Source: an uncultured bacterium
GTDB taxonomy: Bacteria; Patescibacteriota; Minisyncoccia; Phycocordibacterales; GWA1-40-21
Direction of reading: 5' to 3'
Assembly: GCA_903832855.1 (NCBI GenBank)
Contig: CAILDB010000014.1
Coordinates: 144 to 64,143 of the forward strand
DNA length: 64,000 nucleotides
Made by a program: the position numbers and the translations under genes. The notes below the pieces were generated by a model that was given only the letters and a program-made list of their open reading frames with translations, did no database searches and had not been told where the DNA came from. Of the stretch, positions 3,746 to 56,463 are shown piece after piece. Each line of letters begins with the position of its first letter. Position 1 is the first letter of the stretch.

Positions 3746-3788
3746 AACCTTATTTAAAGCCCTATAATTATCTATCCACAATTTAAAT

Positions 3789-3817
3789 TTGCAATTATAT
3801 AATGGATACCATATAAT
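3789..3817 (+). promoter_or_regulatory. Sigma70-like promoter TTGCAA-17-TATAAT.
   Basis: Hexamers and 17-bp spacer read directly. Confidence 0.35.
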
Positions 3818-3823
3818 AGTCTT

Positions 3824-3925
3824 ACAAAGATTTGATGTTTCGAACTGTCACCGGATGGTGGCGTGGCTGGGACAACCAGCATAGAGCAACTTATCGGAGA
3901 GAGGCCCTTCGGGGCTTTTCTTTTA
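3824..3925 (+). ncRNA. Candidate ~100-nt small RNA or leader: GC-rich body ending in a UUCG-loop terminator.
   Basis: Promoter at 3789-3817; hairpin aggccc-ttcg-gggctt plus a T-run at 3902-3925. Confidence 0.2.
3902..3925 (+). terminator. Rho-independent terminator (stem aggccc/gggctt, UUCG loop, T-run).
   Basis: Read directly. Confidence 0.5.
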
Positions 3926-3944: not shown

Positions 3945-3953
3945 TGTGGATAA
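3945..3953 (-). promoter_or_regulatory. Perfect DnaA box (TGTGGATAA = TTATCCACA on the minus strand), 30 bp upstream of the -10 of the LexA-MTase gene.
   Basis: Exact 9-mer. Confidence 0.5.
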
Positions 3954-3983
3954 CTTTGTATTGCAGAGTTTCTATTTACTTTC

Positions 3984-3989
3984 TATAAT
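3984..3989 (+). promoter_or_regulatory. -10 TATAAT only 6 nt before the ATG at 3996 (leaderless transcript).
   Basis: Spacing read directly. Confidence 0.35.
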
Positions 3990-3995
3990 ATATGA

Positions 3996-5495
3996 ATGGC
4001 AAAAGACATGCAAATAAAGGTGTTTAACTTTATTAAAAATTTTGAAAAGAAAAAGAAGTTTTCCCCTTCATTAAAAGAAATCTGTAATAAATTTAACTAC
4101 TCCTCTGTCTCGACGGCGTCCTTTCACATCAAGAACCTTCAGGATAGCGGATTTTTAGTTAGAGAAAAAGGTAAACCCAGATCAATAGAAACCTTTGATT
4201 ATGAAAAACTAATTCGCATACCATTTTTAGGTAAGATATCAGCGGGAAGACCAATAGAGAGAATGTCAGAAAGAGAGTTTATTGCTATACCACAAAGTAA
4301 AATTCCAAGAACAGGAAATATATTCGCACTTGAGGTGTCCGGCAATAGCATGATTGAAGAAAATATCAATGATGGAGATGTTGTACTAGTTAAAGAACAA
4401 AACGTGGCCGATAACGGGCAGAAAGTTATCGCCTTGGTTGATAATTATGAAACAACATTAAAAACTTTTTACAGAGAAAGAAATCAGGTAGTCCTCAAGC
4501 CAGCAAATAAAGAATTTGAGCCAATAATTATTCCAAAAACAAAACAACTCGAAATACAGGGGGTTGTCATTGATGTTATAAAAAATGAAGGCAATAAAGT
4601 CCCGGCTGAAAAAATAATCAAAAGATCAGACGAACTTCCCCTAAACAAGATAATCCTAAATGATGCGGTGGAAGAATTAAAAAGGTTACCAGACGACAGC
4701 TGTGATGTAATAATAATTGACCCCCCATATAATATAGGGAAAGATTTTGGAAATAACATAGACAAAAGAGAACTCAGTGAATATATAAGATGGTCAAAAA
4801 GTTGGATTGACCAATCTATAAGAGTGTTAAAACCTACTGGAACGATGTTTATCTATGGGTTTAGTGAAATTCTTGCCCATTTATCAGTTGAAATATCCAT
4901 AAACAAAAGATGGCTAATTTGGCATTATACAAATAAAAATGTCGCCTCATTAAATTTTTGGCAAAGAAGCCATGAATCAATAATTTGTGCATGGAAAGAT
5001 AAGCCTGTATTTAATAAAGATTCGGTCAGAGAGCCATACACGGAAGGATTTTTAAACGGCGCTGCTGGAAAAATCAGAAAAGGAACAGTGGGTAGGTTCA
5101 GCAGTAGTGGGCAAGAAACGGTTTACAAGGCACATGAAGGCGGTGCCCTACCCCGTGATGTTATCAAGATCCCTGCATTAGCCGGAGGAGCAGGAATGAA
5201 TGAACGTTGGTTCATTTGTAAGACATGTAATAAAATCTGCGAGCCTAGAAAATTAAAGGAACATCTTACGCACATTACTGAAAAACACCCGACGCAAAAA
5301 CCGTTAGAACTTTGTAGAAAATTAATTAAGTCAGCGATGCCTAACCAAAACGGGGTGGTATTGGTTCCTTTTGTCGGTTCTGGAGCCGAATGTGCAGCGG
5401 CAAAAGAATTAGGACAAAATTATATCGGATTTGAGATCAACCCAGATTATATAGAACTTGCTGAGAAAGTGATTTCCTCAACTAAAATTAAATAG
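3996..5495 (+). CDS. Fusion protein: LexA-like repressor (wHTH plus S24 peptidase with AG cleavage site, Ser in SGNSM, Lys in LKTF) fused to a beta-class DNA methyltransferase.
   Basis: The N-terminal ~200 aa align along the full length of LexA. C-terminal MTase motifs are DPPY (motif IV), HPTQKP and PFVGSGAE (motif I); motif IV precedes motif I, which defines the beta class. Confidence 0.7.
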   Translation: MAKDMQIKVFNFIKNFEKKKKFSPSLKEICNKFNYSSVSTASFHIKNLQDSGFLVREKGKPRSIETFDYEKLIRIPFLGKISAGRPIERMSEREFIAIPQSKIPRTGNIFALEVSGNSMIEENINDGDVVLVKEQNVADNGQKVIALVDNYETTLKTFYRERNQVVLKPANKEFEPIIIPKTKQLEIQGVVIDVIKNEGNKVPAEKIIKRSDELPLNKIILNDAVEELKRLPDDSCDVIIIDPPYNIGKDFGNNIDKRELSEYIRWSKSWIDQSIRVLKPTGTMFIYGFSEILAHLSVEISINKRWLIWHYTNKNVASLNFWQRSHESIICAWKDKPVFNKDSVREPYTEGFLNGAAGKIRKGTVGRFSSSGQETVYKAHEGGALPRDVIKIPALAGGAGMNERWFICKTCNKICEPRKLKEHLTHITEKHPTQKPLELCRKLIKSAMPNQNGVVLVPFVGSGAECAAAKELGQNYIGFEINPDYIELAEKVISSTKIK

Positions 5496-5499
5496 GTGC

Positions 5500-6195
5500 C
5501 TATTTAATTTTCTGATCTATTTTCCTTTTCTCCCCTTCAAAAGTTAATGGGGTAAAGACGACAAACCCATTTTTAAATCTCTCTAAATTTTTATTATTTG
5601 TAAAATCGGTGTAGGGTTTCCTCCACTCCCCTTTTTTTGTTTTGGGGTTACTAAAAATATCAGAAGGCGGTACAATATACAAAATATCAATAAATTCCCC
5701 CTCAAGTTTAGTTTTTGAAGCGTCTTTATCCCTTCTAACCTCCCTACTATGAGTTTCTTTTTTAACTTGGTAGTTTAGTTTATAACCTTTATAATTTATC
5801 CTAAAATCAGCCCCTTTATGATCTAATTCCTCACTCATTTCAACACTTTTTTCTCCAAATACCGATTCGGCGACATACCCCGCATGTATTTGAGTGATTA
5901 TACTTGCCCATGTTCTATATATTCTGGCTGGTAAGCCAAGATAAAAACATTTCTGGCACATCTGTATCTTTTTTCTAAAAGTTTCTAAATTGTTACTTAA
6001 AGTAGATTTGTATTCATTATAAAAATCATCAAAATTCAAAAACTTTTTATCATTCCAATAAACTTTATATAGAAAAGATATTGCCTGAATTTCTTTCGGC
6101 AAATCCATTTCTACTATTTTTATCGGACGAAATCTTTCTCTATAAGAACTAAGATCAACCGTTTTCAGAAATTTTGTAAATTTATCTAAATGCAT
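5500..6195 (-). CDS. Putative type II restriction endonuclease, convergent with and 4 bp from the MTase.
   Basis: Convergent R-M layout. DLSSYRERFRPIKIVEMDLP...LGLPARIYRTWASIITQIH...YQVKKETHSRE...KNGFVVF resembles, from memory, a TaqI-family endonuclease; this is not verifiable here. Confidence 0.4.
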   Translation of the reverse strand: MHLDKFTKFLKTVDLSSYRERFRPIKIVEMDLPKEIQAISFLYKVYWNDKKFLNFDDFYNEYKSTLSNNLETFRKKIQMCQKCFYLGLPARIYRTWASIITQIHAGYVAESVFGEKSVEMSEELDHKGADFRINYKGYKLNYQVKKETHSREVRRDKDASKTKLEGEFIDILYIVPPSDIFSNPKTKKGEWRKPYTDFTNNKNLERFKNGFVVFTPLTFEGEKRKIDQKIK

Positions 6196-33907: not shown

Positions 33908-35248
33908 ATGTTAGACAACAAAACACTTTGGAATAATGTTCTCGCGGGGATGGAGCTTGATTTATCAAAGGCAAATTTTAGTATGTGGTTTAAAGAAACA
34001 TACATACAAAAGCAAGAAGACGGGACTATTTTTCTTGCCGTCCCAAATGTTTTTGTAAAGGATTGGCTTTTTAATAAATACCATAAAGATATTTTGAAAA
34101 ATTTGAGAAATTTTGGCGAACATATCCGAGCGATACAATATACTATTGCAAAAGAAGAGTCTAAACATGTAAGCGGGGAAGTAAAAGTGAATATAAATCA
34201 CAACGAGCTTCCTTTGAACGATTTTTATATTAATAAAGAAGATAATCTAAATCCAAAATATACATTTGAAACATTCGTAGTCGGACCTTTCAATGAGCTC
34301 GCTCACGCCGCCTCTCAAGCAATATTAAAAAATCCAGTTGTCTACAATCCTCTTTTTATTTATGGAAGCACCGGCCACGGTAAGACACATTTGATTCAAG
34401 CTGTTGGAAATTATATTAAGACCGCTGACCCGACAAAGAAAATCTTTTATATGACATCGGAAAAATTTGTGAATGATTATTTAAATGCACTAAATAATGG
34501 CAGTGTAAATAATTTTAAGGAAAAATACAGAAAATATGACCTACTTATCATAGACGACATCCAATTTTTATCAAAAAAGGATAAATCACAGGAAGAATTC
34601 TTCCATTTATTCAATAATTTTCATGATAGTGGCAAACAACTTATTTTTTCATCGGACAAACACCCGAATTTTATTCCCGATATAGAAGACCGTATAAAAT
34701 CAAGGTTTAATGCAGGCATGATTGTGGAAATACAAAAACCGGACTTTGAATCAAGAATACAAATATTCAAAAAGAAGGCTGTGATGATGAATTTATCCAT
34801 TTCAAACGATGTTATAGAGCACCTAGCCTATTCTATTGAGGGAAACATAAGAGAGCTCGAGGGGGTTTTAAATATTATTCTTTGTCAGACACAACTAAAA
34901 AATAAAGAATTAAATATAGGCGAAATCAAGGAGCTTATTAAAAATACAGCGAAACCAAAAAAAATAAGGTCACCCAAAGAGGTAATAAAAACAGTTGCAG
35001 AATTTTATGGACTAAAAGAAGAAGAAATTTATGAAAAGGGTAGGAAGAAAGAGATAATAAAACCAAGACAGGTGGTAATGTATATGTTAAGAGAGATTTT
35101 AGACATTTCTTTTCCGTCAATTGGTGATAAAGTAGGGAACAGAAATCACTCCACGGTCATTCACTCTTACGAAAAAATTAAAAATGATATGAAAACAGAC
35201 GCCGAGCTTGCTGGAGAGATAAATCAAATACACGCAATGCTTAAATGA
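33908..35248 (+). CDS. dnaA: Chromosomal replication initiator DnaA.
   Basis: GSTGHGKTHL Walker A; box VII and the C-terminal DNA-binding domain (...REIL..SFPSIG..). Confidence 0.9.
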   Translation: MLDNKTLWNNVLAGMELDLSKANFSMWFKETYIQKQEDGTIFLAVPNVFVKDWLFNKYHKDILKNLRNFGEHIRAIQYTIAKEESKHVSGEVKVNINHNELPLNDFYINKEDNLNPKYTFETFVVGPFNELAHAASQAILKNPVVYNPLFIYGSTGHGKTHLIQAVGNYIKTADPTKKIFYMTSEKFVNDYLNALNNGSVNNFKEKYRKYDLLIIDDIQFLSKKDKSQEEFFHLFNNFHDSGKQLIFSSDKHPNFIPDIEDRIKSRFNAGMIVEIQKPDFESRIQIFKKKAVMMNLSISNDVIEHLAYSIEGNIRELEGVLNIILCQTQLKNKELNIGEIKELIKNTAKPKKIRSPKEVIKTVAEFYGLKEEEIYEKGRKKEIIKPRQVVMYMLREILDISFPSIGDKVGNRNHSTVIHSYEKIKNDMKTDAELAGEINQIHAMLK

Positions 35249-35466
35249 TGGGGATAACCTGTGGAAAACACCCGGAAAAACTGTGAGTAAAGATACGACT
35301 TATCAACAATAAAAATTATTTTAAAAACAATAGAAAAAGTATCCACATTTAAAACACAATTTAACAAAAAATAGTTACTTAAATAGGTTGCAAAATAATG
35401 ATATAATGAGATATACACAAATAAACAACAATAGTAGTATAAATTCTCTATAATAAAAAAAATAAT

Positions 35467-36570
35467 ATGAAAATAGAATGTATAAAAGAAAAATTACAGA
35501 TTGCTGTTTCAAAGACCGAAAAAGTTTCCGGTAAAAACCTTACACTTCCTGTTTTGTCTTGTTTATTATTTGAAACCAAAAAAAACCAACTTCTCATTAA
35601 ATCCACCAACCTTGATCTTGGAATGGAGATTTCTATCCCAGTGAAAGTGATAGAAGAGGGAATTGTGGCTATTCCGGCGCAAGTTTTGAATAATTTTCTA
35701 AACAACCTTGAAGATGACAAGTCTATTACGATAGAAACGGTTGAAAACAACAATGTAAAAATTCATACATCTACAAATAAAGCGATGATAAAGACTATGG
35801 CACAAGAAGATTTTCCTACAATTCCGGTAATAGATGGTGATAAGAAATTTAAAATAAATTCCAGAGATTTGATAAAAGGTTTGAGATCCGTTTCATACAG
35901 TTCCTCGGTTTCTACTATAAAACCCGAACTTTCTAGTGTTTATGTTCATTCAAATGACGAAGAAATTGTTTTTGTCGCCACAGATTCCTTCAGACTTGCA
36001 GAAAAGAAAGTAAAAATTAAAAAGCCACTTGATTTTGGTTCAGTATTGATCCCATTTAAAAATGCAATTGAGATAATGAGAGTTTTTGATGGTGTGGATG
36101 ACGACATAGAAGTGAGTGTTACAAAAAACCAAGCATCTTTTGTATATGACGGTATGTATATTGTCTCTAGGGTTGTGGACGGAGCTTTCCCTGATTACAA
36201 ACAAATTATTCCAAAAGAGTTTAAAACCCAAGCAACGGTTTTGAAACAAGATTTAATTAACACCTTAAAATTATCAAACATTTTTTCCGACAATTTCAGT
36301 CAGATAAATGTAAAAATCACCCCAAGAGATAAAACTTTTGCTATAAAAACAAAAAATTCAAATGTTGGTGAAAACACAAACAACATTGAGTCGGTTTTGG
36401 AAGGTGAAGATGTGGAAATAAACTTTAACTACCGTTACATCCTAGACTGCCTTTCTTTTGTGGATTCAGATAGTGTCATCTTGTCATTTAATGGCTTAAC
36501 AAGGCCAATGGTTATCCGTGGTACATCCGACAAGTCATTTACATATCTCGTAATGCCTATGAACAGATAA
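35467..36570 (+). CDS. dnaN: DNA polymerase III beta sliding clamp.
   Basis: MKIECIKEKLQIAVSKTEKV...; three-domain length 367 aa. Confidence 0.85.
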   Translation: MKIECIKEKLQIAVSKTEKVSGKNLTLPVLSCLLFETKKNQLLIKSTNLDLGMEISIPVKVIEEGIVAIPAQVLNNFLNNLEDDKSITIETVENNNVKIHTSTNKAMIKTMAQEDFPTIPVIDGDKKFKINSRDLIKGLRSVSYSSSVSTIKPELSSVYVHSNDEEIVFVATDSFRLAEKKVKIKKPLDFGSVLIPFKNAIEIMRVFDGVDDDIEVSVTKNQASFVYDGMYIVSRVVDGAFPDYKQIIPKEFKTQATVLKQDLINTLKLSNIFSDNFSQINVKITPRDKTFAIKTKNSNVGENTNNIESVLEGEDVEINFNYRYILDCLSFVDSDSVILSFNGLTRPMVIRGTSDKSFTYLVMPMNR

Positions 36571-53770: not shown

Positions 53771-54121
53771 TTTCTCTCTCGCTTTTGCGAGAGAGTTTTG
53801 TTTTAGTGTTCTTCCAAGCCAACCACCGAGTTCCTTACCTATTTCATTTGTTCTTTCCGAAAGCCAGATGAATTTCTTGTCTTCAAGAGATTTATTTTCC
53901 CAAAGAATGAGCAAAAAAACATTTAATGTGTTGATTTTTCTGATTGCTAATCTGATGTAGGGGGCTTTTTCTTCTTGTGACAGAAAAGTGGCGATAGCTA
54001 CCGCCTCTATTATGTCAGTAAATAAATTATCTACCTTTTGACCGAGAGTGTGCCTGTGGTTTTTCGGCAATATCTGATAATATTCATACCAAAACTTGTA
54101 AACGGTTTTGATTTCTTGCAT
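53768..54121 (-). CDS. avd: Avd-like accessory variability determinant (four-helix-bundle, IVS-protein family), encoded on the strand opposite to TR and RT; its stop overlaps the TR 3' end.
   Basis: YKFWYEYYQILPKNHRHTLGQKVDNLFTDIIEAVAIA is a typical Avd/23S-IVS pattern. Start placed at ATG 54121 (MQEIKT); the ORF track extends to a TTG through the poly-G run. Confidence 0.65.
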   Translation of the reverse strand: MQEIKTVYKFWYEYYQILPKNHRHTLGQKVDNLFTDIIEAVAIATFLSQEEKAPYIRLAIRKINTLNVFLLILWENKSLEDKKFIWLSERTNEIGKELGGWLGRTLKQNSLAKAREK

Positions 54122-54140
54122 TATCGGCAATAATTTTAGT

Positions 54141-54151
54141 GGGGGGGGGGG
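54141..54151. repeat. 11-nt G homopolymer in the 50-bp divergent avd/RT promoter region.
   Basis: tagtgggggggggggcttt read directly; exceptional in a ~35% GC genome. Confidence 0.6.
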
Positions 54152-54170
54152 CTTTATAGTTGTCTTTTTT

Positions 54171-55175
54171 ATGTCCAAAATTAAATTCGTTCATAAGTAT
54201 GAAGATATCATAAAAACAGAAAACCTGCTAGAAGCATGGAAGGAATTTTTGCGTGGGAAAAAGAAAAAAGATGATGTGCAGATTTTTGAAAGAAATTTGA
54301 TGCAGAATATTTTCTCTCTTAATGCGGATTTGAAAACGAGAACCTACGAACACTCCAAATATGAGGCCTTTAATATCTCTGACCCTAAGCCAAGAACAAT
54401 TCATAAAGCGAAAGTTAGAGATAGACTTTTACACCACGCTATTTATAGATATTTATATCCATTTTTTAATAAAACTTTTATTGCCGACTCTTTTTCTTGT
54501 CGTCTGGATAAGGGAACGCACGGAGCAATAAAAAGATTAGACGGATTTTATCTAAAGGTCTCAAAAAACAATACAAAACAGGTCTGGGTTTTGAAATGTG
54601 ATGTTCGCAAGTTTTTTGATTCCATAAACCACGAGATTCTCTTAAATATTTTGGATTCATATATTGAAGATAAAGAAGTCACAGAGCTTTTAAGAAAAAT
54701 AATATCCAGTTTTTACAAAAAAGAAGTTGGTGTGGGGCTACCTCTCGGAAATCTAACCTCCCAGCTTTTTGTGAATATCTATATGAACATTTTTGATCAA
54801 TTCGTAAAACACAAATTGAAAGCAAAATGCTATATCAGATATTCTGATGATTTTGTTATTTTGTCGAAAAACAAGGAATGGCTTGAAAGTATTTTGCCAA
54901 AAATTACCGACTTTCTTAGCGAAAGACTCAAACTTTCTTTGCATCCAAACAAAGTATCAATCAAAACATTTTCTTCCGGCACGGACTTTCTCGGCTGGGT
55001 GAATTTTCATAATCACAAAGTACTTAGAACGAGAACAAAAAAGAGAATGTTTAGGAATATTTTGGCGAAGAATTTCAAAAAGGAAGTGGTGCAGTCGTAT
55101 TTGGGGTTGTTGAGCCATGGAAATACAAATAAAATAAAAAATAATTTGTTGAGGCAAATTCCAGTTTCCTTTTAA
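54171..55175 (+). CDS. DGR reverse transcriptase.
   Basis: RT motifs PKPRTIHKAKVRDRLLHHAI, CDVRKFFDSINHE and YIRYSDDFVIL (YxDD). DGR-diagnostic GLPLGNLTSQ (IGxxxSQ). Start at ATG 54171. Confidence 0.85.
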   Translation: MSKIKFVHKYEDIIKTENLLEAWKEFLRGKKKKDDVQIFERNLMQNIFSLNADLKTRTYEHSKYEAFNISDPKPRTIHKAKVRDRLLHHAIYRYLYPFFNKTFIADSFSCRLDKGTHGAIKRLDGFYLKVSKNNTKQVWVLKCDVRKFFDSINHEILLNILDSYIEDKEVTELLRKIISSFYKKEVGVGLPLGNLTSQLFVNIYMNIFDQFVKHKLKAKCYIRYSDDFVILSKNKEWLESILPKITDFLSERLKLSLHPNKVSIKTFSSGTDFLGWVNFHNHKVLRTRTKKRMFRNILAKNFKKEVVQSYLGLLSHGNTNKIKNNLLRQIPVSF

Positions 55176-56322: not shown

Positions 56323-56463
56323 CTAGAAAAAATAGAAACCTCGTAGCAAAATGCTTTTGAAATGCCTTGGGAGGAGCGGCTGGCGACGGACAGAGAAAAT
56401 TTCTAGCAAGAAATTTTCGTGCATTTCAAAAGTTTTTTGTGGAGAGGTTTTTATTTTTTCTAG
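56323..56463. repeat. Diverged third member of the family-1 structured element (gcttttgaaatgccttgggagg ... cgtgcatttcaaaag), nested in the outer palindrome ctagaaaaaatagaaacctc / gaggtttttattttttctag in the tig upstream region.
   Basis: Shares ttttgaa.tg.cttgggagg and cgtgca.ttcaaaag with copies 1 and 2. Confidence 0.45.

Follow-up and report, generated by a model that had tools for sequence, protein, structure and literature searches.

A LexA-methyltransferase fusion in a TaqI-type restriction-modification module of Patescibacteria

In a 64,000-nucleotide stretch of contig CAILDB010000014.1 from an uncultured member of the Patescibacteria (assembly GCA_903832855.1; hereafter the window, the whole stretch of DNA analysed), a single open reading frame (ORF) joins a complete LexA to the beta-class DNA methyltransferase (MTase) of a TaqI-type restriction-modification (R-M) system. 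The gene converges tail to tail on a second ORF, which encodes the restriction endonuclease (REase); the coordinates of all features are collected in Table 1. What appears to be new is an autoregulated Type II R-M system whose regulator would be a fused, self-cleaving LexA, and which is both widespread and modular. As an explanation of the whole we consider it probable that this is a TaqI-type R-M module under an autorepressing LexA-MTase, with a possible response to RecA* and the SOS state. Newly found here are promoter repeats that covary with the recognition helix, the recurrence of a DnaA box upstream of them in most loci, and a LexA clade carried on several MTase classes.

The N-terminal half matches the lexA equivalog TIGR00498 over residues 5-197 at 157.8 bits, against a cutoff of 110.95. 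Within it PF01726 (LexA_DNA_bind) covers residues 6-62 (8.7e-10, 38.7 bits, cutoff 23.7) and PF00717 (Peptidase_S24) covers residues 76-192 (1.6e-28, 99.2 bits). A preliminary description of this DNA had claimed the full LexA architecture, and the profile scan agrees: the half lies above both the LexA and the S24 thresholds, and the winged helix-turn-helix (wHTH), A83-G84, S118 (within GNSM) and K156 (within TLK) are all where that reading had placed them. Each of these four residues is 100% conserved among 119 full-length homologues, and the recognition helix, SVSTASFH, falls at about residues 37-44. The consensus cleavage site among the homologues is IAA/GQPIE (the slash marks the bond), which resembles the VAA/GEPL of E. 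coli LexA; the window itself has ISA/G. Among solved structures the closest match is the LexA of Thermotoga maritima (PDB 3k2z, 5.5e-30). An AlphaFold2 (AF2) model is confident for the LexA half and poor for the MTase half, with a predicted local distance difference test score (pLDDT) of 64 overall. By every feature that sequence can test this half is a true LexA, and by the same measure it is catalytically intact.

The C-terminal half carries DPPY (residues 242-245) ahead of FVGSG (459-463), together with HPTQKP, which is the motif order of a beta-class enzyme; the earlier assignment to this class thus stands and is joined by matches to PF01555 and to the PADLOC model MTase_II (3.8e-49). Its matches in the PDB are adenine MTases, namely 9c3u/8urk (1e-29), M.RsrI (2e-20), M.MboIIA and CcrM. 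Because of these matches and the DPPY motif, the methylated base is probably N6-adenine. The Cys-rich insert that had been remarked upon is present, and its four Cys/His residues, like DPPY, are invariant in 119 of 119 fusions. It is a trait of the MTase family, not a peculiarity of the fusion: MTase-only homologues from archaea and other bacteria have it too, and it is missing in locus L045. Mean pairwise identity among the 119 homologues is highest in the MTase (0.83), followed by the S24 domain (0.74), the wHTH (0.63) and the linker (0.50), where indels are apparent in the alignment.

The preliminary description had proposed looking for the same fusion in other genomes, and it proves to be very common in Patescibacteria. 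In a protein database search 4877 homologues passed E<=1e-10. Of these, the best 120 are about 500-510 aa long, share three identical Pfam domains, are 67-100% identical, and come from Patescibacteria (the candidate phyla radiation, CPR), for example Falkowbacteria, Taylorbacteria, Paceibacterota and Minisyncoccales. Homologues are labelled 'transcriptional repressor LexA' by NCBI and 'adenine-specific methyltransferase' by JGI. An artefact, frameshift or read-through was considered and is ruled out by the 119 full-length homologues with an intact linker; the DNA of the window also recurs identically in several independent assemblies. Because the best 120 share one architecture and their catalytic and motif residues are 100% conserved, the fusion is, on this comparison, genuine and under selection. 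The preliminary description knew of no characterised example, and our literature search, which took in a preprint of 2026 about the MTases of CPR bacteria and a review of R-M biology from 2025, found no paper describing a LexA-MTase fusion or its mode of control; the search did not cover Sanchez-Osuna 2017 on SOS in Patescibacteria.

The partner gene was said in the preliminary description to resemble TaqI-family endonucleases. It matches PF09573 (RE_TaqI) over nearly the whole profile, positions 1-218 of 229, at 6.2e-39 and 134.2 bits (cutoff 26.1), and the PADLOC model REase_II at 1.3e-32. A database search gave 1090 homologues of the REase. Conservation reaches 97% or more at 87 of its 231 positions, E110, D130 and Q143-V-K145 among them; a sequence search of the PDB gave no relative with a solved structure. 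From species-representative genomes we took 80 loci and scored each one for LexA, MTase and REase. The full fusion occurs in about 28 of them, all in Patescibacteria, and in about 20 of these 28 an intact TaqI-family REase lies directly downstream and convergent, as in the window, where the two genes do meet across the small gap first reported. Five fusion loci have no REase, and a few keep merely a C-terminal remnant or a split gene, the usual pattern of R-M decay. Archaea, Alphaproteobacteria and other groups have MTase-only homologues (50-64% identity), and many of these lie beside TaqI-family REases. Since these relatives in other groups are paired with TaqI-family enzymes as well, the MTase-REase pair would be old and the LexA part would have been added within Patescibacteria.

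In three loci a tRNA gene lies about 10-110 nt upstream of the REase on the same strand (L001 4850-4931, L009 10233-10303, L013 4983-5055). The REase may be read through from the tRNA promoter, or the module may have inserted beside tRNA genes.

Tetranucleotide counts are suggestive of the recognition site, which is probably TCGA. The window holds 67 copies where 176.6 are expected (ratio 0.38), and in 256 kb pooled from REase-bearing loci no other 4-bp palindrome is depleted as strongly as TCGA (326 copies where 695.7 are expected, 0.47). Two observations weigh against this assignment: loci without a REase show an equal depletion of TCGA (0.40), and ACGT (0.27), CATG (0.42) and GATC (0.52) are also under-represented in the window. 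The shortage of these three sites suggests pressure from further 4-bp restriction systems in the lineage. With the convergent pair retained across loci, MTase-only relatives that are paired with TaqI-family enzymes and TCGA depleted nearby, the proposed identification of the locus as an R-M module can be regarded as practically certain.

The control region upstream of the fusion gene is where the LexA half is predicted to act. No palindromic LexA box of the kind raised in the preliminary description was found there; the conserved element is a direct repeat. About 30 orthologues share a common promoter order, in which TGTGGATAAC is followed after 2-13 nt by two direct repeats 11 bp apart, and these repeats abut or overlap the -35 and -10 hexamers or sit just downstream of the -10. 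In a search that allowed offsets of 10-12, 33 of 34 loci had their best direct repeat at an offset of exactly 11. The exact match has a median length of 7 in these loci and of 4 in 306 control upstream regions (Mann-Whitney p=1e-14). Lineages differ in the sequence of the repeat, which follows that of the recognition helix: TTTCTA is paired with STA(H/Y)(F/H)H, TTCGGT with ST(I/V)H(Q/E)H, TTTCGA with ST(V/A)HYH, and TGCTCGGG with STTHEH. The repeats are also kept in loci L029-L031, where a wHTH without S24 is fused to the MTase, and in an operon with a stand-alone LexA and without any MTase. Because the repeats follow the helix and persist without the MTase or the S24 domain, we think it likely that the wHTH binds them and that the MTase would thereby repress its own gene.

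The preliminary description had also noted a -10 hexamer and a DnaA box upstream, and both are present: TATAAT at the distance expected of a leaderless or nearly leaderless mRNA, which is probable here, and TGTGGATAA, a perfect DnaA-box 9-mer at 3945-3953. The start codon is ambiguous, as gene callers give 499 aa (ATG 3996) or 495 aa (ATG 4008) for identical DNA in public assemblies. The length of the N terminus in orthologues favours ATG 3996, and the mRNA would be leaderless only with this start. Unlike the window, orthologues have leaders of 30-45 nt, and at the -35 place they carry TTGACT or TGGACT. In L002, L004-L006, L008-L013, L161, L162 and L164 the motif (A)AGTCAA lies 1-10 nt before the fusion ATG, in the place of a Shine-Dalgarno sequence. 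This motif reverse-complements the promoter's own -35, TTGACT, and is missing in the window, whose leader is deleted.

Allowing one mismatch within 120 nt upstream, a DnaA box is found in 27 of 30 TaqI-type fusion loci against 25 of 296 control regions. The LexA-DpnI operon described below has two boxes, and no box was seen in the four other LexA-MTase types examined. We considered the box as part of the LexA operator and rejected this, as the box stays constant while repeats and helix change. Because it is invariant while the adjacent repeats vary, a conserved host protein, DnaA, is the more likely binder than the wHTH, and the box plausibly adds a replication-linked input to MTase expression. 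Elsewhere in the window, dnaA (33908-35248) and dnaN (35467-36570) are separated by a region with four near-consensus DnaA boxes (35249-35347), a cluster that is probably oriC. Exact copies of cTGTGGATAAct stand in five other intergenic regions (7683, 8677, 14344, 33819 and 40982), one of which is 248 nt upstream of uvrD.

The reach of the repressor appears to be narrow. The window contains a single exact TTTCTN6TTTCTA, at the fusion's own promoter, and the operator is absent upstream of the repair genes uvrD, ruvB, polA and xth in the window. A candidate second operator before the trigger factor gene (56333-56349) was rejected, since its spacing is 9, not 11, and no repair gene is involved. 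An excess of operator matches with one mismatch (24 against 6.8 expected) is mostly intragenic and antisense, and we attribute it to Lys/Glu codon bias. Over these 64 kb the regulon appears to be only the R-M system's own promoter, and the label of the SOS repressor is probably wrong for this protein.

When the LexA part alone was searched against 1.84 billion representative proteins, about 33 of its 45 closest relatives turned out to be proteins of 380-890 aa with an N-terminal LexA; LexA proteins of the ordinary length, about 200 aa, are met only from about 39-46% identity. Of the 20 nearest longer relatives, 19 are a LexA joined to a DNA MTase, of varied families. The classes so joined are beta N6_N4 (including permuted forms), alpha D12/Dam, and gamma N6_Mtase/Eco57I with TaqI_C or M_Eco57I_C. 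The REases paired with these other LexA-MTases belong to unrelated families and are tail to tail with them wherever the neighbours are readable, with overlaps of 4-21 bp. System P0282 pairs an Eco57I-type MTase with RE_AccI (overlap 21 bp), P0258 an N6_N4 MTase with Tsp45I (4 bp), and P0293 an M.TaqI-like MTase with a 234-aa protein to which no family is assigned (4 bp). The first two, which are unrelated systems, also carry an HTH_3 C-protein gene upstream of the REase; none was seen in P0293. In the promoters of these fusions 11-bp direct repeats recur, which in some cases are inverted and follow directly after the -10. A 72-aa HTH_3 C protein is likewise encoded directly upstream of the REase in L002 (4565-4780), L004, L005, L008, L011, L012 and L018, and no homologue of this gene was found in the 64-kb window.

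The closest stand-alone relative, of 213 aa and 53% identity, opens an operon that it shares with a DpnI-family REase (L165 1125-2551, L166), in which type-B repeats accompany a type-B helix; DpnI-family enzymes are methyl-directed. In L033 the two parts are unfused, and a separate S24/LexA-like gene overlaps the beginning of the MTase gene. In L037 (7944-9347, in the complete genome OZ244939.1) an S24-like domain sits on the MTase with no wHTH and an unrecognisable Ala-Gly site, the converse of L029-L031, where the wHTH is present and S24 is missing. The flanking genes of the window occur in none of the 80 loci and there is no conserved synteny; the module therefore seems to move between contexts. 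An origin in phages or other viruses was considered and rejected: viral contigs hold only homologues of the MTase without LexA, and the REase has no match in phage records. In the IMG/VR set (L081-L160) such homologues are abundant at 50-59% identity, carry no LexA, and many lie in giant-virus metagenome-assembled genomes (GVMAG).

The LexA clade thus looks like a portable cassette of promoter, operator and repressor for the restriction systems of Patescibacteria. Taking everything together, a clade fused to at least three MTase classes and found in a DpnI operon might couple R-M to single-stranded DNA (ssDNA) sensed by RecA*, as arises in damage, DNA uptake or phage infection, and to replication through the DnaA box. 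We offer this joint reading tentatively, as somewhat less probable than its negation.

We propose the following mechanism for the module in the window. The winged helix of the LexA half would bind the 11-bp-spaced repeats on the core promoter of its own gene, and the MTase would in this way repress its own synthesis. The two genes abut tail to tail, and no terminator was found between them; transcripts from the unrepressed promoter would therefore run on into the REase gene in antisense. In a naive host, methylation would therefore come early and restriction would be delayed. On DNA damage, RecA* on ssDNA would trigger self-cleavage between Ala83 and Gly84, detaching the DNA-binding domain and derepressing the promoter, while the S24-MTase fragment would remain active. 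Methylation would go up and restriction down, which amounts to restriction alleviation during repair. The finding of operator repeats together with 100% conserved cleavage residues strengthens this regulatory reading.

Several points weigh against it. The loci are kin to each other, so that the covariation of helix and operator may partly reflect shared ancestry. DNA binding, cleavage and methylation specificity are all predictions, and antisense interference is read from gene layout. The variants that have lost S24 (L029-L031) or the wHTH (L037) indicate that cleavage is dispensable for R-M function. Finally, recA was found neither in the 64-kb window nor in any fetched locus, and the RecA partner is thus assumed; the evidence for the RecA*-cleavage step is the perfect conservation of the cleavage machinery. 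For this step, control triggered by RecA*, we would give even odds.

The alternative that fares best drops just this step and treats the LexA part as a dimerising DNA-binding domain for autorepression, with cleavage serving slow turnover or another signal. It would account for the wHTH-only fusions L029-L031, which share both the operator and the REase partner, and for the lack of a visible RecA in the window and the fetched loci; protease-free autorepressing MTases such as M.SsoII also exist. It is nevertheless hard to uphold, because all 119 homologues retain the Ala-Gly, the Ser and the Lys, and S24 (0.74) is better conserved than the wHTH (0.63), which implies selection on catalysis, and we consider it unlikely. 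Less probable still, and in our view a poor candidate, is that the fusion is the global SOS repressor of recA and the repair genes in its cell and has simply acquired an MTase domain. A score above the trusted cutoff of the lexA equivalog, the NCBI name, the intact cleavage residues and the lack of a further LexA gene in the 64-kb window would all fit a global regulator. However, the one exact operator in 64 kb, with none before uvrD, ruvB, polA or xth, does not; nor do the differing genomic contexts of the module, its loss or decay in some lineages, operator specificities that differ between lineages, and closest relatives that are all joined to restriction components, with ordinary LexA proteins only at about 39-46% identity. 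That cleavage is a suicide switch, in which RecA* causes the MTase to be cut and degraded so that the REase kills the cell by abortive infection or post-segregational killing, is highly improbable: loss of the MTase does make R-M systems kill their host, and cleavage at the consensus IAA/G (ISA/G in the window) would leave an N-terminal fragment ending in Ala-Ala, an end that is degron-like in E. coli LexA, but the cut spares the MTase domain and should derepress its promoter, and the stand-alone LexA-DpnI operon has no MTase to destroy.

To our knowledge, the timing of Type II R-M systems and their avoidance of self-restriction after damage have been attributed only to C proteins, a few MTases bearing a helix-turn-helix (HTH), and antisense RNAs. 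If the proposed mechanism is true, a self-cleaving LexA within an MTase would be a new principle of control and a direct wire from SOS to restriction, and would provide an SOS-linked restriction alleviation for Type II systems, for which no counterpart is described. Thousands of 'LexA' labels in Patescibacteria probably denote R-M controllers and not SOS regulators, and could mislead reconstructions of regulons. Helix-operator pairs of differing specificity could be put to use as orthogonal repressors inducible by damage. The proposal is readily testable, since operator, cleavage site and enzymes are all small and easily expressed in E. coli.

Table 1. Features of the LexA-MTase/REase locus, in window coordinates
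Feature	Position	Strand	Details
DnaA-box-like motif TGTGGATAAC	3945..3954	+	about 45 bp upstream of predicted transcription start
Putative -35 hexamer TTGCAG	3961..3966	+	17 bp from -10; below consensus-scan threshold
Putative operator TTTCTATTTACTTTCTA, direct repeats TTTCTAT at 3969-3975 and 3980-3986	3969..3985	+	fills spacer, overlaps -10
-10 hexamer TATAAT	3984..3989	+	six bases before ATG
LexA-MTase fusion gene	3996..5495	+	499 aa; profile matches and database homologues
LexA winged-HTH DNA-binding domain, aa 6-62	4011..4181	+	PF01726; AF2 pLDDT 76-89 over aa 1-70
S24 peptidase/dimerisation domain, aa 76-192, with Ser118 and Lys156	4221..4571	+	PF00717
Predicted self-cleavage site Ala83-Gly84 (ISAGRP)	4242..4247	+	invariant in 119/119 full-length homologues
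Variable linker, probably flexible, about aa 196-216	4581..4643	+	identity 0.50; AF2 pLDDT about 30
Beta-class N6_N4 DNA MTase domain, aa 237-491	4704..5468	+	PF01555, 1.4e-39, 136.7 bits
CxxC...HxxH insert (C408, C411, H423, H426), putative zinc finger	5217..5273	+	target-recognition region
Gap between convergent stop codons, 4 bp	5496..5499		ORF coordinates
TaqI-family Type II REase, 231 aa	5500..6195	-	PF09573, PADLOC REase_II

Some other elements of the window and its surroundings deserve mention. Between xth and the fusion gene lies a DUF3800-IX small RNA (Rfam, 39.9 bits against a gathering threshold of 36.8) at 3837-3894(+), with a promoter-like TTGCAA-17-TATAAT at 3788-3817 and a terminator of hairpin and T-run at 3894-3921. 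It was considered as a part of the module and rejected, as it was not found in 12 other fusion loci. An intein that bears a LAGLIDADG homing endonuclease domain splits a tyrosine recombinase of the XerC/D type (221-2530, +). A reverse transcriptase gene (RVT_1) at 54108-55175(+) is possibly part of a diversity-generating retroelement, and a second pair of bAvd and RVT_1 lies on the same contig just past the left end of the window.

Among known proteins, canonical LexA (TIGR00498; PDB 3k2z, 1jhh) has the same domains, cleavage site and Ser-Lys dyad, and its self-repression would be shared by the fusion. The fusion differs in being joined to an enzyme, in apparently controlling only its own R-M promoter, in moving between contexts and in belonging to a restriction-linked clade. 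The LexA box of Caulobacter is a direct repeat, GTTCN7GTTC (PMC9578287). This alphaproteobacterial SOS box has the same 11-bp period as the putative operator of the fusion, whose second repeat reads literally GTTC in several orthologues.

R.TaqI of Thermus aquaticus recognises TCGA (PMC5587805). It belongs to the same Pfam family as the REase of the window, PF09573, and the avoidance of TCGA fits a like specificity. On the MTase side the two systems part: the TaqI system has a gamma-class MTase and no fused regulator, whereas that of the window is beta-class with a zinc-finger-like insert. M.TaqI is of the N6_Mtase/Eco57I type with TaqI_C.

Damage-responsive regulators of defence systems include CapH/CapP of the cyclic oligonucleotide-based antiphage signalling system (CBASS) and the WYL-domain proteins BrxR/CapW. 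With the role proposed for the fusion they share that a dedicated repressor makes the transcription of a defence system respond to DNA damage or ssDNA. They are of other families, either metallopeptidase plus HTH or WYL (for BrxR, see PMC9122589), are encoded by separate genes, and are not fused to an R-M MTase.

C-protein systems resemble the fusion in that a dedicated transcription factor times MTase against REase. C proteins, such as those of PvuII, AhdI and Esp1396I, are Xre-type HTH dimers encoded by separate genes, and usually drive the REase. The module of the window has no C gene; its regulator is of LexA type and fused to the MTase.

The nearest parallel in mechanism is offered by the self-regulating MTases M.SsoII and M.Ecl18kI, in which an N-terminal DNA-binding region autoregulates the R-M system through its own promoter (PMC3978073, PMC6100179, PMC3695355). 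Like the fusion, these are Type II MTases with an N-terminal DNA-binding region and a flexible linker, although the fusion's site on its own promoter is putative. They methylate cytosine at C5 and bear a 71-aa HTH but no protease domain, whereas the fusion places a wHTH and S24 on a beta-class amino-MTase. In the SsoII-type systems the two genes diverge from one shared intergenic region; in the fusion system they converge, and the predicted site is a direct repeat. The regulatory parts are non-homologous, and the likeness is one of mechanism only.

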